DNA of 64,000 nucleotides, from positions 41,413 to 105,412 of the forward strand of contig JAJYGF010000013.1 in NCBI GenBank assembly GCA_021785125.1, written 5' to 3'. Position numbers and translations under genes: made by a program. A model generated the notes under the pieces. It searched no databases. It was not told where the DNA came from and was given only the letters and a program-made list of their open reading frames with translations. Of this stretch, positions 1,589-64,000 are shown piece by piece. The DNA comes from a bacterium (lineage in GTDB: Bacteria > Patescibacteriota > Minisyncoccia > Moranbacterales > UBA2206). Each line of letters begins with the position of its first letter. Positions within the stretch are counted from its first letter, which is position 1.

Positions 1589-1661
1589 TGCGCTGGGCAG
1601 GAATCGAACCTGCGACCAATAGCTTAGAAGGCTACTGCTCTATCCACTGAGCTACCAGCGC
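1589..1661 (-). tRNA. tRNA-Arg (anticodon UCU)
   Basis: Reverse complement folds as cloverleaf: acceptor GCGCTGG/CCAGCGC, D-arm GCTCAGTGGATAGAGC, anticodon loop CTTCTAA, T-arm GCAGGTTCGATTCCTGC; CCA not encoded. Confidence 0.85.
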
Positions 1662-1693
1662 TCAATTTTCGCATGCCAAGAAATCTGCAAGGG

Positions 1694-1765
1694 GGCGACT
1701 ACTGGGAATCGGACCCAGGTCCCAAGTGCCACAAACTCGTGTTCTGCCATTGAACTATAGTCGCC
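1694..1765 (-). tRNA. tRNA-His (anticodon GUG) with encoded G-1
   Basis: Acceptor GCGACTA/TAGTCGC, extra 5' G(-1) opposite discriminator C73 (bacterial His identity), anticodon loop TTGTGGC, T-loop TCCGATT; CCA not encoded. Confidence 0.8.
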
Positions 1766-1800
1766 ACTCTGAAGACTTCTTTTTTTGTTCGATCTTAGTG

Positions 1801-1873
1801 TGCATCCAGCTGGACTCGAACCAGCGACCGTTTGCTTAAGAGGCAACTGCTCTACCGACTGAGCTATGGATGC
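1801..1873 (-). tRNA. tRNA-Lys (anticodon CUU)
   Basis: Acceptor GCATCCA/TGGATGC, D-arm GCTCAGTCGGTAGAGC, anticodon loop CTCTTAA, T-arm GCTGGTTCGAGTCCAGC. Confidence 0.8.
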
Positions 1874-1886
1874 GTGATTTATTCGG

Positions 1887-1959
1887 TGCGCTCGGCAGGA
1901 ATCGAACCCACAACACCTTGGTCCGAAGCCAAGTGCTCTATCCGTTGAGCTACGAGCGC
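1887..1959 (-). tRNA. tRNA-Arg (anticodon UCG)
   Basis: Acceptor GCGCTCG/CGAGCGC, D-arm GCTCAACGGATAGAGC, anticodon stem CTTGG/CCAAG with loop CTTCGGA, T-loop TTCGATT. Confidence 0.75.
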
Positions 1960-2036: not shown

Positions 2037-3284
2037 TTAGCGGGATTTTTTCGATGAAGTTTGGTCGGGATGCGGATATTTGCTGGGAGAATCATAATTG
2101 CTGTTGAAGACATCCGCTCGGATAAGTTTGCCGTCGGTTCCGAACACCTGTTGCGTGAAGGTGGCCTTCATGGATCCGTCGGGATTTCTTTCCAGAATTT
2201 TGGGGCCGATCACGTTGACTTTCCTTCCGTCGTCGGTCCCGTAGAATTGAAAAATGAGTTGTGTGCCGGATATCTTCGTTTGGATGAGGATGTATCCCGG
2301 CGTGTCATTGATGAATCGCAGATCGGGCTGGGGGATATATACGGTAGCGTCCATGCCTTGCGGATCGTAGTAGCTGACCGGGTAAGCATGGTTTACTCGC
2401 TCGGTGATTTTCAGTCCGCTGTAGATGGCTGCTCGGAAAGCGGTGGTAGAAACCTGGCAGATCCCGCCTCCGAATTCCGGTTCGGTCTTGTTTTGTTTGA
2501 TTACCAGTTCCGGCAGATAGCCGTGTTCGGCATCCACCGGTCCTAATATTTTCACGAAAGAAAATTCTTCGCCGGGCTTGATGAGCACTCCGTTGAAACG
2601 TTCGGTAGCCACTTGAATATTGAAGACTCTGTTTCTCGGAGAGCCGCGAAAATCGGAATGTCCCTCTCCGATGAGCGAAGTGATGCCCAGGTTGTCGATG
2701 GAATCGGTCGAAATATCCGGATTTTTTTCGACATAAGGCAGAGAGACGGACGGATCCGGCTGTCTTTTGGACAGATAGTCAATCAGAACGGTGACGCTTT
2801 TTGTTTTGTCCAGCTTGATGCCTTTCTGGCTAAGCGAGAAAACAGAAGCCCGTCCGTCCGTTATTGTCAATTTCGCGTCCACCGGATCACGGTCCGCTTG
2901 CCTGGCGATGTCATCGACATATCGACTGACCGCATCTTTATCGACATACAGATGCGTGGCCAATTGAATGTGATTGTCATTTTTGTCACTGAAAGTCAAG
3001 GCGCATACGACAGATTTCTTGTATTTGCAAAAGTCGTCATTTTCTATTTCGGAACGGTAGCTTGGATTGTAATCGAGATCGCTTTTGGACGAGATCCATC
3101 CGGCAATCTCGGAGGCCGGAAGCACGGTTGAAAAGCCCCCGACATTTATGGTTAGGTCGCGCACGAATCCGGTCGGATCGTCGCCGGCAAAAGATCCCAA
3201 TGGAACGGTTTCGGCGCCAGCCGGTTTCATGCTCGGCAAGGCGATGACAAAAAGGAATAAAAAAAGTTTTATCATGTTTCGCAT
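2037..3284 (-). CDS. VanW-family protein (secreted/lipoprotein-like)
   Basis: Conserved VanW motif GGGICQVSTTAFRAAIYSGL; likely start at internal MIKLFLFLFVIALPS signal peptide (the longer ORF to 3338 adds a non-signal extension). Confidence 0.7.
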   Translation of the reverse strand: MRNMIKLFLFLFVIALPSMKPAGAETVPLGSFAGDDPTGFVRDLTINVGGFSTVLPASEIAGWISSKSDLDYNPSYRSEIENDDFCKYKKSVVCALTFSDKNDNHIQLATHLYVDKDAVSRYVDDIARQADRDPVDAKLTITDGRASVFSLSQKGIKLDKTKSVTVLIDYLSKRQPDPSVSLPYVEKNPDISTDSIDNLGITSLIGEGHSDFRGSPRNRVFNIQVATERFNGVLIKPGEEFSFVKILGPVDAEHGYLPELVIKQNKTEPEFGGGICQVSTTAFRAAIYSGLKITERVNHAYPVSYYDPQGMDATVYIPQPDLRFINDTPGYILIQTKISGTQLIFQFYGTDDGRKVNVIGPKILERNPDGSMKATFTQQVFGTDGKLIRADVFNSNYDSPSKYPHPDQTSSKKSR

Positions 3285-3375
3285 GCGTAAAGAATACCGT
3301 AAATCAGCGACGAAATCAATCTCAAAAATAAAAAACACCCCGCGACATGCCGGCAGGATGTTTCAAGCTTTTTAT

Positions 3376-3906
3376 TTAGAAGCCGCGAACCTGTATTTTC
3401 TTGGTTTTGGTGTTGTCGGCTTTCGGCAAGCGGATGGTCAAAATGCCGTTTTTCATCGAAGCTTCAGCCTTGTCCGCCAATACGTCCACTGGCAAAATGA
3501 CCGAGCGGGAAAAAGTGCCCCAATAACATTCCTGGTAATAATAATTTTCTTCTCCGACCATTTCATCATTTTTTCTTTCGCCACGGATGCTGACCATGTC
3601 GTTGTTGATGCTGACATCCAGATCTTCCGGCTTCACTCCGGCTATGGTCGACTTGATGACGATGTCGTTATCTGTCTGATAAACGTCAATCGTAAGCTGG
3701 CCTTCGCTGTCATCTCCGGACGAGAAACTTTCTTCCGACTGGACATTCAGGCTTTTTTTGGATTGGGGGGAGATTATCGTTTCGGCCTCCTCTTCTTCGT
3801 ATATGTTGGCCAGCGGCCTGATCGGCGTTTCATATTCTTCGTTATTGTCTTCGATGCGCGTAGAGCCCGTTAATTTTTCAAAAAATGACCTTTTTACTTT
3901 GACCAT
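3376..3906 (-). CDS. Hsp20/alpha-crystallin family small heat-shock protein
   Basis: ACD core with ...VSINNDMVSIRGER...GILTIRLPK signature, acidic N-terminal region. Confidence 0.85.
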   Translation of the reverse strand: MVKVKRSFFEKLTGSTRIEDNNEEYETPIRPLANIYEEEEAETIISPQSKKSLNVQSEESFSSGDDSEGQLTIDVYQTDNDIVIKSTIAGVKPEDLDVSINNDMVSIRGERKNDEMVGEENYYYQECYWGTFSRSVILPVDVLADKAEASMKNGILTIRLPKADNTKTKKIQVRGF

Positions 3907-3991: not shown

Positions 3992-4558
3992 CTAGGCGCT
4001 GTTCGGCTTCAATCTGCGGCCCAAAAACACCAAGAAAAGATAAGTTATCCCCAGGAACGCATAGGTGAAAACGTACGGCTGTTCATAGATCACCATGAGA
4101 TTGTAGGAGAGGTGCCAAATGAAAGCGAAAGAAATGGTTGTTGCCGTGCGCGCGAAAGACCCGTTCCAGCCATGAATTATGGATATGCCGATGAACAAGG
4201 CAGTGGCGATATGCAGGAGTAAGGCGCCGATGATGCCCGGATCAGGATAAGCCGTACGATTGAGCGCGGCATTTGAAAAGGCGAAAAACAATTCGACGGA
4301 AGCAAAACCCAAGCCGGCGAACAAAGCGCCCGAGATTTTTTTTTGGATTTCGCCGGCATAAAATTTTTCGAGCATTATAAATTTCGCGCTTTCTTCCAGG
4401 AGTACGACCACGAGAAGGAAAAGGGTTATCCGATTGAAATAATTGACCTCAATGTCTTGTCCGGACAGAATGAAATAGAGATTGGATACCAGCATTTCAA
4501 AGATCAGCGCTCCGGAAGCGGCGATTATCCCGAATAAAAATGGTTTCAACTTATTCAT
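3992..4558 (-). CDS. Polytopic membrane protein, possibly PrsW/CPBP-like intramembrane protease
   Basis: Multiple TM helices; EESAKF and conserved His residues reminiscent of PrsW EExxK...H motifs; start overlaps tsaD stop by 4 nt. Confidence 0.35.
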   Translation of the reverse strand: MNKLKPFLFGIIAASGALIFEMLVSNLYFILSGQDIEVNYFNRITLFLLVVVLLEESAKFIMLEKFYAGEIQKKISGALFAGLGFASVELFFAFSNAALNRTAYPDPGIIGALLLHIATALFIGISIIHGWNGSFARTATTISFAFIWHLSYNLMVIYEQPYVFTYAFLGITYLFLVFLGRRLKPNSA

Positions 4559-5625
4559 CGGTCTGACATTTTCAAATTAGCGTCGGTCTTGGTGTTTTTC
4601 CAACCGTCCGACAATCCGCGGAGGCCGGTTTTTTGGCAGCGGAAGTACGCGGCCGCTGCGATCATGGCGGCATTGTCCAATTGGAAAGCCGGTTCCGGGC
4701 AAGAAAATAGCGTGTTCGGAAAATTGTGCTTTACGGCTTCTTGCAGCTGTTTCTGCAGTTCGAGATTGGCGCTGACGCCGCCGGCAACAAGAATGCTCCT
4801 TGGTCCGTATTTTTTGGCCGCCGCGATTGTTTTGGCGGTCAGCACATCGATGACAGCTTGCTGAAACTCGCGACTCATGGACGAAATAAAATCAGGATTT
4901 TTCTTGAAGTCTTCATTTTTTTTCGTAGCGTAGAGCGCCGCCGTCTTCAGGCCGGAAAAGGAAAAATTAAAATCTCCGGAATTTATCATTGGGCGAGGAA
5001 GGCTTATGTCGTAATCTCTGGCGAATTTTGACGGCTGTTTTTGTGCTTCCGATGCTATAGCCGGGCCGCCCGGATAGCCCAAATCCAAAATTCTGGCCAC
5101 TTTGTCGAAAGCTTCGCCGACCGCGTCATCTTGCGTTTCGCCGATAATTCTGTAGTCCAGATGGTCTTCCATAAGAATCAGCTGCGTGTGGCCGCCGGAA
5201 ACGACCAGTGTCAAAACGGGAAAAGGGATGTCCGTGTCACGCTTCCCGATAAAGTTGGCGTAGATGTGTCCTTCAATGTGATGAATGCCGATGAGGGGTT
5301 TTTTCCAGGCATAGGCCAACGTTTTGGCGGCGGCGGTGCCGACCAGCAGTGCCGGAATAAGGCCGGGTCCGGAAGTGACGGCAATAAGATCGATCTCGTT
5401 CTTTCCGATTCCGGCCGTATCCAAGGCGGATTCGATCACCGGCAGAATATTTTTCAGATGTTCCCGGGCCGCCAGATTGGGAACCACACCGCCCCAGCGG
5501 GCATGCAACTTGATTTGCGAAGAAACCATGTTGGACAGCGGCTTGGCGAAGCCGTCAGTCCGGCTTATTCGGATGACGGAAGCGGATGTTTCATCGCATG
5601 ATGTTTCGATGCCGAGAATAATCAT
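4555..5625 (-). CDS. tsaD: tRNA N6-adenosine threonylcarbamoyltransferase TsaD (Kae1/Gcp family)
   Basis: N-terminal MIILGIETSCDETSASV, HxxxH metal-binding (HHIEGH), ASKHA fold motifs throughout. Confidence 0.9.
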   Translation of the reverse strand: MIILGIETSCDETSASVIRISRTDGFAKPLSNMVSSQIKLHARWGGVVPNLAAREHLKNILPVIESALDTAGIGKNEIDLIAVTSGPGLIPALLVGTAAAKTLAYAWKKPLIGIHHIEGHIYANFIGKRDTDIPFPVLTLVVSGGHTQLILMEDHLDYRIIGETQDDAVGEAFDKVARILDLGYPGGPAIASEAQKQPSKFARDYDISLPRPMINSGDFNFSFSGLKTAALYATKKNEDFKKNPDFISSMSREFQQAVIDVLTAKTIAAAKKYGPRSILVAGGVSANLELQKQLQEAVKHNFPNTLFSCPEPAFQLDNAAMIAAAAYFRCQKTGLRGLSDGWKNTKTDANLKMSDR

Positions 5626-11353: not shown

Positions 11354-11429
11354 TACCGCCAAGGGGATTCGAACCCCTGATTTCCAGGATGAAAACCTGG
11401 CGTCCTGGACCGGGCTAGACGATGGCGGC
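11354..11429 (-). tRNA. tRNA-Glu (anticodon UUC)
   Basis: GCCGCCATCGTCTAG... anticodon stem CCAGG/CCTGG loop TTTTCAT, T-arm CAGGGGTTCGAATCCCCT; strong resemblance to bacterial tRNA-Glu; CCA not encoded. Confidence 0.8.
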
Positions 11430-50664: not shown

Positions 50665-50677
50665 ATATTGAATTGTG

Positions 50678-50706
50678 GTAGAGACGCCCCGCCGGGGCGT
50701 CTCTAC
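50678..50706. repeat. REP palindrome GTAGAGACGCCCCG-C-CGGGGCGTCTCTAC (copy 1)
   Basis: Perfect 14-bp arms; identical copy at 51002..51030. Confidence 0.8.
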
Positions 50707-50716
50707 GTTTCAATGT

Positions 50717-51283
50717 ATGCAACCAAAATTCAAAAACAAATACAAAATAAAATCCGCCAGATTATCGGGATATGATTATTCCCACAATGGGATGTATTTT
50801 ATAACCATCTGCACCAAGGATAGGCAGGAATTTTTTGGACGCGTTGAAAATGGGGAAATGGTTTTATCGGATATGGGGAAAATCATTCAAGATGAATTAT
50901 TGCAAACGCCGAAAATCCGTCCGAATGTAAAATTGGACGAATGGGTGATAATGCCAAACCATATCCATGTGATTATTGAAATATGCAATGCAAGGGTTCC
51001 CGTAGAGACGCCCCGCCGGGGCGTCTCTACGAATGGAAACAAACGTGGTGGTTATAATCCTAAATGGAAACCAAATTCGATCGGTTCAATTATTAATCAA
51101 TTAAAATCCATTTGCACAAAACGCATTTTAAAATTAGAAAATGTTACATTCGCCTGGCAATCGCGGTTCTACGACCACATCATCCGCAATGAAATTTCTT
51201 TGGACAAGATCCGCGAATATATACGAACCAATCCCCAGATGTGGGAACGGGACAGAAATAATATTGAGAATCTCTGGATCTAA
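50717..51283 (+). mobile_element. REP-associated tyrosine transposase (RAYT, IS200/IS605 Y1-transposase fold)
   Basis: HuH motif HIHVII and catalytic-Tyr block WQSRFYDHIIRNE; start likely ATG 50717 (longer ORF from GTG 50675 translates REP copy 1). Confidence 0.75.
51002..51030. repeat. REP palindrome copy 2, in-frame inside RAYT coding sequence
   Basis: 29/29 identical to copy 1; encodes VETPRRGVST within ORF. Confidence 0.8.
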
Positions 51284-51312: not shown

Positions 51313-51436
51313 TGTCTTACTGTTAACCTTGACTTTTGGGTTGATTTGGAGTATAATGTAAAATTACTGTGAAGTTGTTTTAAAATTCAAAACCCGCTTT
51401 TCCGACGGCTAAAATATCGGATAGGAGGTGCGACAA

Positions 51437-51712
51437 ATGAAAAAGGTGCTTAGTGAAGACAAGTATAGGGGTTGGAATGTATGGCTGGAAGAAGGCTTTT
51501 GTGCTGTCTATGCGAGATTTCACTATACGCTTCAATATCCCAATCCAAATTGGGGAAAAGTAGTTTCCTACATCGAAAGTGTGGATATTGGCGAGGAGGA
51601 ATATCGTCGCCTCTATGATGGTGAGGATCCGGCAATTGTTCTGGCTTCTTGGGAAGAAACTAAAGAGAGAATAAAAAGGGAAATATATTCTTTCTTTACC
51701 TTGCAGAAGTAA
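51437..51712 (+). CDS. Hypothetical small protein
   Basis: AGGAGGT RBS 7 nt before ATG at 51437. Confidence 0.45.
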   Translation: MKKVLSEDKYRGWNVWLEEGFCAVYARFHYTLQYPNPNWGKVVSYIESVDIGEEEYRRLYDGEDPAIVLASWEETKERIKREIYSFFTLQK

Positions 51713-57921: not shown

Positions 57922-58488
57922 ATGGAAAAAATAAAAATTCTTCTGGTGGATGATGACGAGTCTATCCGCGGGATGTATGCGGAGATCTTCAAGCGGGAAA
58001 ATTTCGAGGTGTCCGAGGCGGCGGATGGCGTAGCGGGTCTGGATATGGCCGTGAAAAATGTTCCGGATGTCATCTTCACCGGAATCGTCATGCCGACGAT
58101 GGACGGCTTCGCTCTGATGGAAGCGCTCAAGAAAAATGTCATTACGGCGAAGATTCCAGTCGTGATCTCTTCACATCTCGGCCGCGAAGAAGACCAGCGG
58201 CGGGCCGACGAGCTTGGCGCCAAAGGTTTTTTTGTCCGCGGATTCTACACACCGAACGAGATCGTGGAGAAGATCCGCGCCATCTTCAACCTGGCGGAGT
58301 ATCGGCTGAAATTCTCGCCGAGTGAAGCTGACGCGCCGCAGTTGGCCAAAGATATGCATTTCCAGGAAAATTTCAAATGCGCGAGCTGCGGTGGCGAGCT
58401 GGTTTTGTCACTCAAGCTGACTGACGTCGAAGGGCATAATTTCAATGCCCGATTCATCTGTTCGAAATGCAACAAAGTCCAGGAGTAA
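57922..58488 (+). CDS. Single-domain response regulator with C-terminal CxxC...CxxC zinc ribbon
   Basis: REC domain (LLVDDDE...DVIFTGIVMP...K) followed by CASCGG...CSKCN. Confidence 0.7.
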   Translation: MEKIKILLVDDDESIRGMYAEIFKRENFEVSEAADGVAGLDMAVKNVPDVIFTGIVMPTMDGFALMEALKKNVITAKIPVVISSHLGREEDQRRADELGAKGFFVRGFYTPNEIVEKIRAIFNLAEYRLKFSPSEADAPQLAKDMHFQENFKCASCGGELVLSLKLTDVEGHNFNARFICSKCNKVQE

Positions 58489-58537: not shown

Positions 58538-60265
58538 TTGAAAGAATATATGACACACAAGATTTGGAACGTAAAAGATAAAATTTCAGAGATAAGTTCC
58601 GGATTGAGGGATAAATTCCATCCGGTCGTCCTCCAGCTTCTTCACAATCGCGGCATTCTGACCGATCAAGCGATTGAAAAATTCTTCAACTTTAGCTATG
58701 ACGCCGACGTGCATAACCCGTTTTTATTCAAGGATATGCAAAAAGCCGTCGGTCGGATCATCCAGGCCAAAGAAAAAGGTGAGAAAATCGCCGTTTTCGG
58801 CGATTATGACGCGGATGGTGTGACAGCCACGGCTCTTCTTTTCGAAGCCTTGTCGGATCTGGGCTTCAAAGATGTCGTCGCGTATATTCCGGATCGGCAG
58901 AGCGAAGGATATGGCATGAACACGTCGGCTGTCGGATATTTGTCAAAAGAAGGCGTCCGATTGATTGTTACGGTCGATTGCGGCATCACTAATATGGCCG
59001 AAGTGAAAAAAGCCGAAAGCCTTGGAATCGATGTGATCGTAACCGATCATCATCATGTGCCGAAAGATCTGCCGCAAGCCGTCGCTCTAATCAATCCGCA
59101 CAGGGAAAATTGTGGCTATCCTTTTACCGATCTGGCCGGCGTAGGCGTGGCTTTCAAATTGGCGCAGGCATTATATATGAAGATGGAACCGGCCAAGATC
59201 GACCGATTGAAGTGGCTTTTGGACTTGGTGGTGATCGGCACGGTGGCGGATTGCGTGCCCTTGATCGGAGAAAATCGGGTGTTGGTGAAATACGGATTAG
59301 TCGTGCTATCAAAAACTCGCCGGGCGGGGCTTTTGGAAATGTTCAAAGTTGGGCGGATTTCGATCGATGAAAATAACGTTCCGGATACGCGGAAGATCGC
59401 TTTCCAGATCGCTCCGCGCATCAACGCAGCCGGACGGATGGATCATGCCAGCATATCATATAGACTGATGATTGAAAAAAATACGGTCATGGGCCGTGAT
59501 ATGGCGCTGGAAGTCGAAAAGAAGAATCAGGATCGCCAAAAAATCACCGGTGAGATCGCCAGAGAAGTGCGGACCTTGGCGGAAAATTCTTTCAAGGATA
59601 GGAAATTGATCTTTGCATCAAACGAGCATTGGCAGGTTGGAATTCTCGGCCTCATTGCCGGTCGGATCGCGGATGAATTCAATAAACCGACGGCTATCTT
59701 CCAGAAGCAGGGTGGGGAATTTGTCGGATCCTTCCGCAGTATCGATCAAGTCAATATCATTGAAGCGCTTGAAAAATGTTCGGATCTTCTGATTCGCTTC
59801 GGCGGACATTCGCAGGCGGCCGGCGTGACCGTCAAAGAAGAAAATATGGAAAAATTATATGAAAAATTGTCCGATCTGATCGAAAAAGAATTGGCTGGCA
59901 AGGATATCGCGCCGAGCATTGATGTCGATGCGGAGATATCCGCTGGAGATGTCGATTGGAACTTGCTCCAAGAAATAAAAATGATGGAACCGTTCGGCGA
60001 AGGCAATGAAGAGCCGGTCTTTCTGATGAAGAACCTCCTGGTTGAAGATGTGAAGACTGTCGGCAATGGCAGCAAACACATGAAGCTCGGCTTGCGTTCC
60101 GAGGGCGTTCCGAAGCTGTTTGAATCGATCGGATTCGGATTGGGCGAAAATGCCTTGGACTTGAAAGCCGGTGATTCAATCGATATCGTTTGCAATCTGC
60201 AGGAGGATGAATGGAATGGGAACAAAAAGATACAGTTCAATCTTGTGGATATAAAAAGAACTTGA
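58538..60265 (+). CDS. recJ: Single-stranded-DNA-specific exonuclease RecJ
   Basis: DHH motifs (GDYDADGVTA, DHH), DHHA1 domain, C-terminal OB. Confidence 0.85.
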   Translation: MKEYMTHKIWNVKDKISEISSGLRDKFHPVVLQLLHNRGILTDQAIEKFFNFSYDADVHNPFLFKDMQKAVGRIIQAKEKGEKIAVFGDYDADGVTATALLFEALSDLGFKDVVAYIPDRQSEGYGMNTSAVGYLSKEGVRLIVTVDCGITNMAEVKKAESLGIDVIVTDHHHVPKDLPQAVALINPHRENCGYPFTDLAGVGVAFKLAQALYMKMEPAKIDRLKWLLDLVVIGTVADCVPLIGENRVLVKYGLVVLSKTRRAGLLEMFKVGRISIDENNVPDTRKIAFQIAPRINAAGRMDHASISYRLMIEKNTVMGRDMALEVEKKNQDRQKITGEIAREVRTLAENSFKDRKLIFASNEHWQVGILGLIAGRIADEFNKPTAIFQKQGGEFVGSFRSIDQVNIIEALEKCSDLLIRFGGHSQAAGVTVKEENMEKLYEKLSDLIEKELAGKDIAPSIDVDAEISAGDVDWNLLQEIKMMEPFGEGNEEPVFLMKNLLVEDVKTVGNGSKHMKLGLRSEGVPKLFESIGFGLGENALDLKAGDSIDIVCNLQEDEWNGNKKIQFNLVDIKRT

Positions 60266-60284
60266 AATATGCTAGAATATAATC

Positions 60285-60716
60285 ATGGATGAAAAAATAA
60301 CCATGTTCACCGACGGCGGTTCAAGGAACAATCCGGGTCCGGCGGCGATCGGTGTCTATATTGAAACGCTCGGTAAAAAATATTCGGAATATATCGGTGA
60401 AAAAACCAATAATGAAGCCGAATATATGGCGCTTATCTTCGGCCTGCAGAAATTGAAACAGCTTCTGGGCAAAGAGAAGATGAAGCAAGCGGAGGTCGAT
60501 TGCTATTTGGACAGCGAACTGGTTGTGAAGCAGTTGAACCACGAATATAAATTAAAAGAAAAACATATCCAGGAGTTTTTCATCGATATCTGGAATCTGA
60601 TGTTGGATTTCAAGTCGGTTCGGTTCACCCATGTTTTGCGGGAAAAAAATAAGATTGCCGATGCTTTGGTGAATGAGGCGTTGGACGCGAGGAAAAAACA
60701 AAATAATTTGTTCTAA
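60285..60716 (+). CDS. rnhA: Ribonuclease HI
   Basis: DGGSRNNPGPAAIGV, NNEAEYMALIFGL, catalytic DEDD context. Confidence 0.85.
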   Translation: MDEKITMFTDGGSRNNPGPAAIGVYIETLGKKYSEYIGEKTNNEAEYMALIFGLQKLKQLLGKEKMKQAEVDCYLDSELVVKQLNHEYKLKEKHIQEFFIDIWNLMLDFKSVRFTHVLREKNKIADALVNEALDARKKQNNLF

Positions 60717-60790: not shown

Positions 60791-61798
60791 ATGACAAAAA
60801 AACGCATAATCTGGCTGATCATAATCATCGCCGTGATCATCAGCGGATATCTGATGCTTCGCAAGAAGCCAGTCAGTCCGTACACGACGGAAGCGGCAAC
60901 GCGGGGAAATTTAAAACAGACCGTCTCTTCGACCGGAACTTTGAAAGCGGAGCAGGAGATAGATCTGAACTATAAAGCGGTCGCGAAGATCGACAGCATC
61001 TTGGTGAATGTGGGCGATGCGGTCAAGAAAGGGCAATTATTGGCTGTCATCGATCAAGAGACTTTGCCCGAACAATTGGTCCAGGCTCGGGCCAATTTCG
61101 TCACCCAGAAACAGACTTTGATAAATATGAAAAGAAGGGATGATCTGTACAATGGCGCTCAGGTGGAAGCGCAAAGAGCGGTGGTTGATTCGGCCCAAGC
61201 CGGCATCGATTCGATCCTGACTCAGATCGCGAATACGAAAATAATTTCTCCGATCGACGGCATCGTCACTCAGAAAAACGGCGATGTCGGAGAGCTGACC
61301 TCATTGACGACGCCGATCCTGACCGTGGCCAGCCCCGGACAATTGCATATCGAGTCGAACATCTCGGAATCGGATATTGCCAAAGTGGCGGTCGGGCAAA
61401 CCGCCCAGGTGACTTTTGACGCGTTCGGGCAGAATCAGATCTTCAATGCGACAGTGACTGATATCGATCCGGCGGCAACTGTGATTTCGGACGTGGTCTA
61501 TTATCGCGTGAAACTTAATCTGGACAACAATGACCCGCGCTTGAAATCCGGAATGAGCGCCAATGTCGATATTTTGACGGCGGAAAAAGACAATGTTTTA
61601 ATGATTCCGCAAAGGGCGGTCAAGACGGACAATAATGGCCAGCAATACGTAGACGTTTTGATAGGAACGGACGTGAAAACGCAAACCACACAGAGAAAAA
61701 ATGTTGAAACGGGATTGTCCGGCGATGACGGGATGATTGAAATAAAATCCGGATTGAATGAAGGGGATAAGGTGGTAACATTCACGAAGGCTTCTTAG
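60791..61798 (+). CDS. HlyD/MacA-family periplasmic adaptor subunit
   Basis: N-terminal TM, coiled-coil, beta-barrel and MP domains. Confidence 0.75.
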   Translation: MTKKRIIWLIIIIAVIISGYLMLRKKPVSPYTTEAATRGNLKQTVSSTGTLKAEQEIDLNYKAVAKIDSILVNVGDAVKKGQLLAVIDQETLPEQLVQARANFVTQKQTLINMKRRDDLYNGAQVEAQRAVVDSAQAGIDSILTQIANTKIISPIDGIVTQKNGDVGELTSLTTPILTVASPGQLHIESNISESDIAKVAVGQTAQVTFDAFGQNQIFNATVTDIDPAATVISDVVYYRVKLNLDNNDPRLKSGMSANVDILTAEKDNVLMIPQRAVKTDNNGQQYVDVLIGTDVKTQTTQRKNVETGLSGDDGMIEIKSGLNEGDKVVTFTKAS

Positions 61799-61993
61799 AC
61801 ATTGGATGTCTAAGTGTTAGGCGGCCTGTCCGCTGCATCTCAAAAGCTGAGCTTTAAAGAATCCTTAAAGGAAACTCAAAAGCTCAGCTTTGGGATACTC
61901 GGCGGACAGGCCGCTTGAATTGAAAGTATTTTTGAAAATAAAAAGCCCGCTTACTTTCCACGAATGTTATCGTAGATTTTCAGCGGAGCTTCA

Positions 61994-62146
61994 CTAAAGG
62001 AGGCCACCCACGGATAATATAGTGCCAAAACAAAACATAAGTATTTTGTTAGGTGCTTGCATGTGGGTGCAAAAGGTAAGGACTAAAGTCAGCATGATGC
62101 AAATTGAAAACATCATGACGTCTAACTTTGTGTATCTCTCGCTCAT
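61994..62146 (-). CDS. Unannotated 50-aa Cys-rich hydrophobic peptide with strong RBS
   Basis: AGGAGG 6 nt upstream of ATG; MSERYTKLDVMMFSICIMLTLVLTFCTHMQAPNKILMFCFGTILSVGGLL; below the ORF-track length cutoff. Confidence 0.4.
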   Translation of the reverse strand: MSERYTKLDVMMFSICIMLTLVLTFCTHMQAPNKILMFCFGTILSVGGLL

Positions 62147-62214
62147 TGCGTGCCTCCTGTAAACGGTGAATGTGATTTTTAAGGTGTTTTAAATTATACT
62201 CTTTATTTTATTAA

Positions 62215-62940
62215 ATGTCAAGTTCAATAATCCAAGTTAAAAATCTTCAAAAGACGTACGATAGCGACGGCGTTTTGACTCCCGCGGTGAAAGGAGTTTC
62301 TTTTGGAATTGAAAAAGGCGAGTTTGTCTCGATCATGGGTCCGAGCGGATCCGGCAAATCGACGCTCATGCAGATGCTGGGTTTTTTGGATCGGCCGAGC
62401 GGCGGGGAATATATTTTTGATGGCACGAACACGGAGAATTTTTCTGATGATCAGTTGGCCACGATCCGTAATGAAAAGATCGGATTCGTTTTTCAGACTT
62501 TCAACCTTCTGCCGAAAACGACCGTCTTTGAAAATGTGGAATTGCCGTTGATGTATGATCCGCATATCTCAAAGATAAACGAAGAACAGGTTCTGGATGC
62601 TTTGAAAAGCGTGGGGATGGACCATCGCAAAGATTATTTTTCCAACCAGCTGTCCGGCGGGGAAAGACAGCGGGTGGCGATCGCCCGCGCCTTGGTCAAC
62701 AATCCGAGCGTGATTTTTGCGGACGAGCCGACCGGCAACTTGGATTCCAAATCCGGCACGCAGGTGATGAAAATTCTTCAAGCTTTGAATGACGCCGGCA
62801 ACACAATCGTGCTTGTCACGCACGAAACTTTCACAGCCGAGCATGGAAAGAGAATGATCCAAATGAAAGATGGAGAAATTGTTTCTGATCAGAAAATAAC
62901 CAACCGCCGCTTCGCGACAGATGGAGAGTTGTTGAAATAA
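62215..62940 (+). CDS. MacB/LolD-type ABC transporter ATP-binding protein
   Basis: Walker [19 protein letters not shown], Walker B IFADEPT. Confidence 0.85.
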
Positions 62941-64000
62941 ATGCAATTTACAGATCCTGTCAAAATCGCATACAGAAATCTGGCGGCGAATAAGTTTCGC
63001 TCGTTTTTGACTATTTTGGGAATCATCATCGGTGTCGGTTCTGTCATTTTAATCATGGCCATCGGCCAATCGGCGCAAGGCTTGATCCTGGACCAGATCA
63101 AAGGTGTCGGATCGAATCTGGTCGTGGTCATGCCGGGCGGTAGCGATGAAAAGGGACCGCCGGCGGAAGCGATGGGAATCAAGATTACCACTTTGAAATA
63201 CGACGACTTTCTGGCAGTGACTGACACTAACAACGTGCCGGAAGTGCAGGACGGCGCGGCGTATGTGCAGGCGAACGAGATCGTGGACTACAACGGCAAT
63301 GAGATGTCATATTCCATAAACGGCGTGACGCATGATTATGCCAATGTCGAGAATATCGACATCCAAAAAGGCCGTTCGTTTCTGCCGGAAGAAGATACGA
63401 ATATGGCGCGTGTGGCCGTCATCGGCGCGAATGTGCAACGCGATCTTTTCAATAGGGATGACGCAGTCGGCAAACAGATTAAAATCAACGATCAATTGTT
63501 TACGGTGGTCGGAGTTTTCAAGGTCAAAGGCGGCGCTGGCTTCGGCGGCGGAGCGACGGACGACATGATTCTTCTGCCGTTTCGGACGACGCAGAAGTTA
63601 ATTTTGGGCATTGATTACATCGACATAATGCGTCTGCGGATCACGGATGCGTCGCAGATCCAGGCGGCCAAGGATGACATCGCCAAAACTTTGCGTATCC
63701 GGCACAATATTTCCGATCCGACAAATGATGATTTTTCCGTGCGCGACATCGCCTCGGCCCTGTCGGCTGTCACGAGCGTCACGGACGTCTTGCGCTATTT
63801 TCTTTTGGCAGTGGCTTCCATTTCTCTTTTGGTCGGCGGAGTCGGCATCATGAATATCATGCTTATCTCCGTCAATCAACGCATCCATGAAGTGGGTCTC
63901 CGGAAAGCGGTAGGGGCCAAAAACTCCGATATCCTCGAGCAATTTTTGATCGAATCGGCCACGATCACTCTGGTCGGAGGATTGGTCGGCATAATTTGGG
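62941..64000 (+). CDS. MacB-type FtsX-family ABC permease (3' end beyond window)
   Basis: N-terminal TM FRSFLTILGIIIGVGSVI, large periplasmic domain, no stop before window end. Confidence 0.7.
   Translation, partial: MQFTDPVKIAYRNLAANKFRSFLTILGIIIGVGSVILIMAIGQSAQGLILDQIKGVGSNLVVVMPGGSDEKGPPAEAMGIKITTLKYDDFLAVTDTNNVPEVQDGAAYVQANEIVDYNGNEMSYSINGVTHDYANVENIDIQKGRSFLPEEDTNMARVAVIGANVQRDLFNRDDAVGKQIKINDQLFTVVGVFKVKGGAGFGGGATDDMILLPFRTTQKLILGIDYIDIMRLRITDASQIQAAKDDIAKTLRIRHNISDPTNDDFSVRDIASALSAVTSVTDVLRYFLLAVASISLLVGGVGIMNIMLISVNQRIHEVGLRKAVGAKNSDILEQFLIESATITLVGGLVGIIW

Follow-up and report, generated by a model that had tools for sequence, protein, structure and literature searches.

The window analysed here is a stretch of 64,000 nucleotides (nt) from a bacterium of the Patescibacteriota (order Moranbacterales; assembly GCA_021785125.1, contig JAJYGF010000013.1), and its final genes belong to an ABC-type export operon. 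On the strand opposite to this operon, between the genes for its adaptor and its ATPase, lies a small open reading frame (sORF) at positions 61994..62146 of the minus strand. It has an ATG start, 50 codons and a TAG stop, and its product is MSERYTKLDVMMFSICIMLTLVLTFCTHMQAPNKILMFCFGTILSVGGLL. An earlier note on this DNA had proposed an unannotated gene for a 50-amino-acid (aa) peptide at 61994-62146 (-). The ORF is indeed there, and it has remained uncalled by gene callers on all six public contigs that carry the locus. These six contigs, one of them from assembly GCA_027428215.1, are identical across the gap that holds the sORF. In this study, we describe the sORF, its expression signals and its predicted product, compare the same junction in related loci, and weigh what kind of element this is.

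The operon is encoded on the plus strand, so that the placement of the sORF on the opposite strand within an HlyD/ABC locus was correctly noted. The HlyD-family adaptor (MacA/YknX-like, 335 aa; 60791..61798) matches the Pfam families HlyD_D23 (8.6e-21) and HlyD_3 (2.8e-15), and its record carries the BSH_YknX and Beta-barrel_YknX families. After a gap of 416 bp comes the ABC ATPase (MacB/YknY-like, 241 aa; 62215..62940), which matches ABC_tran at 3.3e-34; its other Pfam matches are weaker, sub-cutoff families of P-loop NTPases. The MacB-type permease begins at 62941 and runs to 64000 and beyond the window end (MacB_PCD 8.2e-43, FtsX 1.1e-12). On the full contig it is 416 aa long, and another permease of this type comes next. 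The neighbouring genes thus have the Pfam content of a MacB-type (type VII) ABC pump with its adaptor, and the predicted architecture is the Gram-positive-style MacAB/YknXYZ order of adaptor, ATPase and MacB_PCD/FtsX permease. Upstream of the pump genes, also on the plus strand and also recognized by Pfam, are RecJ (58538-60265) and RNase H (60285-60716). The closest relatives of the flanking genes are found in metagenome-assembled genomes (MAGs) of Parcubacteria and Moraniibacteriota.

The sORF is preceded by a sigma-70-type promoter at 62193..62221 (minus strand), with TTGACA (62221-62216) and TATAAT (62198-62193) separated by 17 nt, a 12/12 match to the consensus. It is the only perfect match within the 64-kb window, in which six promoters with at most one mismatch were found against 0.36 expected. 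The -35 element overlaps the start of the ABC ATPase gene and is the reverse complement of its ATG TCA A codons. From this promoter, we infer a transcript that would start near 62186 and extend for about 250 nt, with a leader of about 40 nt. The consensus ribosome-binding site (RBS) reported in the earlier note is confirmed: a Shine-Dalgarno (SD) sequence, AGGAGG, lies at 62153..62158 (minus strand), 6 nt 5' of the ATG. On both strands of the window together, AGGAGG-N4-9-ATG occurs eight times (2.6 expected), and of the seven other sites at least five directly precede listed ORFs of 91-311 aa. Most long ORFs of the window are without a strong SD, and the small ORFs of the cassettes described below have one. 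Because strong SDs are rare here and stand mostly at real gene starts, the SD counts in favour of the sORF being real. At the other end, an intrinsic terminator occupies 61935..61992 (minus strand). It begins at the stop codon with a two-tier hairpin, whose outer stem is CCGCU/AGCGG and whose inner stem is UCUACGA/UCGUGGA, and continues into CUUUUUAUUUU; the hairpin and U-tract have a dG of -23.8 kcal/mol and a z-score of -5.7.

Three further features of the gap concern RNA structure or opposing transcription. An anti-SD sequence, GCCUCCU, lies within the last sORF codons (GGLL) at 61998..62004 (minus strand) and forms an inverted repeat with the SD. In the predicted fold of the 250-259-nt mRNA (z -4.9), AGGAGGC pairs with GCCUCCU and encloses the whole ORF; the pairing appears in both the minimum free energy (MFE) and the centroid folds, with a predicted pairing probability of ~1.0. 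A weak promoter-like site, TTCACT-17-GATAAT (9/12 consensus match), is located on the plus strand at 61990..62018, inside the 3' end of the sORF. An RNA started at this site, were it active, would be antisense to the whole sORF and would read into the ATPase gene; no terminator precedes that gene, and by inspection the site is not conserved in the related locus L002. Between the adaptor and the sORF terminator, directly 3' of the adaptor stop, is a near-perfect hairpin of ~95 nt (61820..61915, not assigned to a strand). It has a perfect GC-rich outer stem of 13 bp, GCGGCCTGTCCGC, and an inner palindrome, AAAGCTGAGCTTT, and no second such hairpin exists in the window. It probably terminates or stabilises the adaptor transcript and insulates it from the antisense unit. 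At the corresponding position, L002 carries a comparable long inverted repeat, GTCATTGCGAG...CTCGCAATGAC. No Rfam family matched the gap or ten related loci, save for sub-threshold miRNA-like matches to the ~95-nt hairpin, and no second copy of the gap, as a repeat or a miniature inverted-repeat transposable element (MITE), was found within the window.

The predicted product is strongly hydrophobic, as the earlier note had stated, with a grand average of hydropathy (GRAVY) of 1.07 and two hydrophobic stretches by hydropathy, at residues 7-29 and 34-50. AlphaFold 2 (AF2), run on the single sequence, places helices at residues 3-28 and 33-49, with a predicted local distance difference test (pLDDT) score of 75. 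The peptide is therefore most likely a two-helix hairpin that would insert in the cytoplasmic membrane. Its composition had been described as Cys-rich, with five Cys residues; this was overstated, since there are three (C16, C26 and C39), each within the predicted hydrophobic helices. The GG-containing tail is present. The C-terminus reads SVGGLL, and its GG, the only one in the peptide, occupies residues 47-48 of 50, with two residues after it. The proportion of T in the sORF is 0.49 at codon position 2, compared with 0.27 at position 1 and 0.25 at position 3, and this position-specific enrichment fits a hydrophobic protein read in that frame.

To place the sORF among its relatives, loci were gathered with the adaptor protein from genomes and metagenomes (Parcubacteria, Moraniibacteriota and unclassified metagenome contigs). 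The junction between adaptor and ATPase was compared at 22 loci, numbered here with the prefix L, that share the RNase H-adaptor-ATPase-permease synteny and in which adaptor and ATPase were both located. The junction is compact, at 10-30 bp, in nine of the 22 (L007, L008, L009, L010, L012, L015/16, L018, L025 and L034) and measures 350-1050 bp in the non-compact loci. An antisense cassette is present in eight non-redundant loci: the window, L002, L003 (=L033), L011, L014, L019, L020 (=L021) and L022 (=L031). On the minus strand, the cassette opens with a TTGAC(A/T)-17-TATAAT promoter (TATAAA in L011) and an SD, which are followed by a 50-88-aa ORF and its terminator. The promoters adjoin or overlap the ATPase start, and every cassette has a hairpin and U-tract no more than 32 nt past the ORF stop (0-32 nt). 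The 12/12 promoter of the window stands at the same place in L002 and L019, and the shared pattern is matched in L014, L020 and L022. Two of the compact loci, L008 and L012, also begin their ATPase with ATGTCAA, which implies that the -35 element of the window-type promoter was supplied by ancestral coding sequence. The ATPase itself lacks an SD, both in the window and in the related loci, whose junction sequences were inspected. In the Moraniibacteriota-like leaders (L003, L019, L020, L022 and L014), a small hairpin, GGCTCAAAGAAGCC, lies directly 5' of the SD (AAGGAGG), for example at 5627-5690 of L003 (minus strand). This hairpin is kept across cassettes with unrelated ORFs; no Rfam family matches it, and neither it nor its motif GGCTCAAAGAAGCCAAGGAGG was found in viral contigs.

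The ORFs that occupy this slot were compared as a set of nine, including one in L017 that is related to the ORF of L022 and has a TTGACT-17-TATAAT promoter with no clear SD. The SD-anchored frame stays open up to the terminator in each of the nine, with a joint probability by chance of ~1e-19, or ~1e-16.5 with the homologous pair counted once. Five of the nine encode two-segment hydrophobic peptides (the window, L002, L011, L014 and L020), and four encode soluble products of 75-86 aa (L003, L019, L022 and L017). Smith-Waterman comparison against shuffled sequences found no significant similarity among the slot ORFs except between L022 and L017, which are homologous at 61% identity with a dN/dS of ~0.19. 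This ratio implies that at least some slot ORFs are proteins under purifying selection. A kinship of the window and L002 peptides, considered on account of a TH/AH loop and a GG near the C-terminus, was not significant (p 0.29). When the 77-aa ORF of L022 and the 61-aa ORF of L002 were searched against the database, each matched itself alone. On a neighbour-joining (NJ) tree of the ATPase, compact and cassette-bearing loci are interleaved, which points to repeated gain, loss or exchange of cassettes.

One exchange can be followed between two close relatives. The flanks of L003 and L020 (the adaptor gene, and the ATPase and permease genes) are ~90-94% identical, and a stretch between them, 272 nt long in L003 and 228 nt in L020, is not homologous. 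It extends from the opening codons of the small ORF as far as the GGGC ahead of the terminator U-tract. With the breakpoints located there, the promoter, the leader and the SD have been retained, and the ORF and terminator stem have been replaced. Across cassettes as well, the promoter and leader are better conserved than the ORF. The terminator tail was considered as the end of a mobile element and set aside: its consensus 20-mer, GGGCTTTTTTATTTTCAAAA, is shared by 26 unrelated viral contigs and may therefore be a generic terminator sequence. That consensus is close to, and not identical with, the terminator tail of the window, AGCGGGCTTTTTATTTTCAAAAATACTT.

Other kinds of occupants were seen at the same junction. 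In L017, it also holds a small ORF with GIY-YIG-like motifs at 3048-3395 (+), and in L026 a DUF559-like ORF lies at 4463-4819 (+) between CTCTCCTCAGATGAGGAGAG hairpins, both recognized by motif inspection. The gaps of L022 and L023 contain MITE-like palindromes, GGATTCCCG...CGGGAATGACA, by inspection. With this variety of occupants, the junction is a general insertion hot spot.

Taken together, we consider it probable that the sORF is a genuine, autonomously expressed orphan gene for a small membrane protein, one that resides in a hypervariable slot and serves as a strain-specific accessory, being neither exported by the pump nor a fixed part of it. The part of the earlier note that saw here a genuine unannotated gene for a small hydrophobic peptide finds good support in the expression signals and the analogous cassettes of relatives, from which translation of the sORF would be expected. 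The note had named a lack of conservation of the sORF in related genomes as speaking against its idea: the peptide sequence is indeed not conserved in relatives, whereas the slot and the expression signals are. As we picture it, the consensus sigma-70 promoter would fire antisense to the pump operon and yield an mRNA of ~250 nt composed of a 40-nt leader, the AGGAGG, the 50-codon ORF and the intrinsic terminator. The two-helix peptide would then insert into the cytoplasmic membrane as a hairpin. Within the Parcubacteria/Moraniibacteriota clade, the junction slot would be either closed or filled by the same architecture, each lineage having a small ORF of its own that is unrelated to the others, and close genomes would exchange the module of ORF and terminator stem with the promoter and leader staying in place. 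As a secondary effect, the cassette may uncouple or dampen expression of the ATPase and permease relative to the adaptor, given that its promoter overlaps the ATPase start and any weak sense promoter there, and that its transcript would oppose read-through from the adaptor. As for physiology, a strain-specific protective, immunity-like or exclusion-like role in the membrane is a speculative suggestion, guessed from the size, hydrophobicity, strong expression signals and hypervariability of the element.

Several observations weigh against this interpretation. A word-indexed search of 5.8 billion proteins revealed nothing related to the peptide, and phmmer found no homologue among 1.84 billion representative proteins. 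The peptide had no match in Pfam, NCBIfam or PHROGs, no relative among viral contigs, and no tblastn hit in any of the fetched related loci. An orphan in all of these searches, it does not allow purifying selection on the peptide to be demonstrated, and the identity of the six contigs across the gap leaves no polymorphism by which selection on the sORF could be gauged. Its codon usage is atypical, with a log-odds of -0.115 that falls below 98.8% of 50-codon pieces of real genes from the window, and codon position 1 is low in G. For the window locus taken alone, the openness of the SD-anchored frame to the terminator has a p of ~0.06. The likeness of the cassette ends may be partly generic. Finally, no toxin, bacteriocin or phage gene was found near the sORF.

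Some of these same features invite other explanations. In a type I toxin-like module, a membrane-damaging peptide would be encoded by an mRNA that is kept inert through pairing of its SD with the 3' end of the ORF, under the control of an overlapping antisense transcript; we regard this as unlikely for the sORF. Type I toxins such as Hok, TisB, BsrG and SprG1 are shorter than 60 aa and hydrophobic, with a putative alpha-helical transmembrane (TM) domain (PMC8309996), and the sORF peptide has this same size and character. Its promoter is strong and constitutive-looking, its mRNA is highly structured, and the predicted pairing of the SD with a distal complement resembles the long-range RBS sequestration of hok-type and other type I toxin mRNAs (PMC8309996). 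The weak plus-strand site in the sORF 3' end would yield a fully complementary RNA, and the sORF is an orphan of patchy occurrence, as is typical for selfish modules. However, folding predictions pair the SD in most long mRNAs, and no discrete gene for an antisense small RNA (sRNA) was found at the sORF, although an RNA encoded in trans is conceivable; the 9/12 sense site has no terminator before the ATPase and is not conserved in L002. Moreover, the peptide has two helices where type I toxins usually have one, and four of the nine slot ORFs encode soluble proteins under the same kind of signals, which a toxin would leave unexplained. The alternative that the cassette is selected for its transcription, as an antisense insulator or attenuator that splits the operon, with an ORF that is incidental or recently born de novo, appears similarly unlikely. 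It is favoured by the greater conservation of promoter and leader than of slot ORFs, by the overlap of the cassette promoter with the ATPase start and with a weak sense promoter-like TATACT in L002 and L019, and by the atypical codon usage and orphan status of the sORF. TM-like peptides are reported to be readily encoded by T-rich sequence (PMC7005711), but the enrichment for T in the sORF is confined to codon position 2. Neither does an incidental ORF agree with the strong SD and start codon kept in the eight non-redundant loci, with the nine of nine scored ORFs that reach their terminator, or with the one slot ORF family whose dN/dS is ~0.19; and the slot ORFs are replaced as discrete modules and do not drift. 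A purely transcriptional role is plausible as a secondary effect and hard to reconcile, as the sole function, with a conserved SD and ORFs that fill the unit.

The remaining explanations tie the peptide to the pump. A small membrane modulator of the MacAB/YknXYZ-like pump, which would bind the permease or the adaptor in the manner of AcrZ or YknW, is quite unlikely, and so is the dedicated pump regulator proposed in the earlier note. Such a function would agree with the location of the sORF between the adaptor and ATPase genes, with its predicted embedding in the membrane, and with the two-helix membrane peptides encoded by five of the nine slot ORFs. A review of MacB left open a possible effect of uncharacterised small membrane proteins on MacB-type pumps, and known small membrane proteins genetically tied to a pump include AcrZ (49 aa, the partner of AcrB), YknW (with YknXYZ) and AS-48E (with AS-48FGH) (PMC5985334). 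Unlike these, the sORF is antisense with its own promoter and terminator, hence not co-transcribed with the pump, and it is not conserved with the pump, being absent from nine related compact operons that are interleaved on the tree with cassette-bearing ones. The slot occupants that replace it are mutually unrelated and partly soluble. The peptide is also dissimilar in sequence: it resembles no known family searched in Pfam and NCBIfam, the AcrZ and Yip1/YknW families included, and its two helices differ from the single helix of AcrZ and from the larger, multi-span YknW and AS-48E. A literature search on small proteins with MacB in Patescibacteria returned nothing specific. Far less probable still is the other function that had been suggested, in which the adjacent ABC system would export the peptide as a bacteriocin-like agent or toxin. 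A small peptide adjoining an HlyD/ABC locus brings such substrates to mind; the small Cys-containing enterotoxin STII is exported with the support of MacAB-TolC, and AS-48 and SDP have been linked to MacB-like systems (PMC5985334). Yet the GG, at residues 47-48 of 50, lies too late to form a double-glycine leader, as nothing would remain after cleavage, and neither the neighbouring ATPase nor the permease has a Pfam match to Peptidase_C39. MacB-type pumps do not carry substrates across the cytoplasmic membrane and handle those already outside the cytoplasm (PMC5985334). By inspection, the peptide has no plausible signal-peptidase or lipobox site: Pro follows the sole ...QA site, and Phe precedes Cys26. 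With just three Cys, all within hydrophobic helices, it has no soluble, Cys-paired mature domain of the STII kind. It is almost entirely hydrophobic, unlike a soluble secreted toxin, and the occupants of the slot in relatives are unrelated to each other.

A strain-specific accessory gene in a variable slot, the interpretation that we prefer, has parallels of its own. Morons and replacement islets, as in lambdoid phages and replacement genomic islands, are autonomous units of promoter, gene and terminator inserted between otherwise adjacent genes. The sORF cassette similarly has its own strong promoter and terminator and lies between genes that are contiguous in relatives, and its content differs between close strains with conserved flanks, encoding small orphan proteins that are often membrane proteins. 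In contrast to morons, the sORF is not in a prophage: its neighbours are RecJ, RNase H and the pump, it has no PHROG match, and it has no relative on viral contigs. The exchanged unit is tiny (~230-270 nt), its promoter and leader appear to be resident, and the cassette is always antisense and always at the same pump-operon junction across deep divergence. Integron cassettes offer a looser likeness, in that promoterless ORF modules are exchanged 3' of a resident promoter. Unlike integrons, this junction shows no integrase, attI or attC, consists of a single slot, and accepts modules that each bring a terminator stem. The arrangement thus has traits of morons or replacement islets and, more loosely, of integron cassettes, and it matches none of them; the simplest explanation for the exchange of modules is homologous recombination through the flanks.

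A broader proposal, which we advance tentatively and regard as possible though doubtful, is that in Parcubacteria/Moraniibacteriota the junction is a dedicated slot for high expression. Interchangeable modules of ~250 nt, each a small ORF with its terminator stem, would be expressed here from a resident consensus promoter with its leader and SD, and would be swapped between strains under diversifying or frequency-dependent selection. Such a slot would amount to a minimal, integrase-free cassette system for strain-specific small membrane or soluble proteins, and would also gate the expression of ATPase and permease.

Apart from the junction, a few other features of the window were recorded. Just 5' of recJ, a 188-aa ORF (57922-58488, +) has an N-terminus that resembles a response-regulator receiver domain and a C-terminal Cys-pair motif (CASCGG...CSKC), by inspection. 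A small gene at 51329-51712 (+), located between a Y1/RAYT-like ORF and enolase, has a TTGACT-17-TATAAT promoter (51329-51357), an AGGAGG at 51423 and an ORF of 91 aa, MKKVLSEDKYRGWNVWLEEGF..., from 51438. Palindromes resembling repetitive extragenic palindromes (REP), with GGCGTCTCTAC, occur at 50675-51283, 49930 and 53260, with seven copies at no more than one mismatch against 0.33 expected; inverted pairs of GGCGTCTCTAC at 50678-50706 and 51002-51030 lie in or at the start of an ORF that resembles a REP-associated tyrosine transposase. Rfam identified a cluster of four tRNA genes at 1589-1959 (-) and an isolated one at 11354-11429 (-).

An orphan small membrane protein is in itself an unremarkable kind of object, and if the cassette is a functionless lineage-specific orphan, its interest is limited to local annotation. 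Less ordinary is the combination of a fixed pump-operon junction, a resident promoter and leader, and exchangeable modules of ~250 nt that recurs across deep divergence in the candidate phyla radiation (CPR). The small proteins of CPR bacteria are almost entirely unannotated, and a strongly signalled, complete gene was missed here by every gene caller. The locus also advises caution, in that an sORF beside an ABC/HlyD locus need not encode a bacteriocin. If the junction does act as a slot of the kind proposed, its products may have roles in immunity, exclusion or host interaction in episymbiotic, genome-reduced bacteria, and it would provide a concrete and testable example of the exchange of ORF modules under a resident promoter. 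It would also mean that genome-reduced bacteria can keep a tiny and highly variable accessory repertoire.

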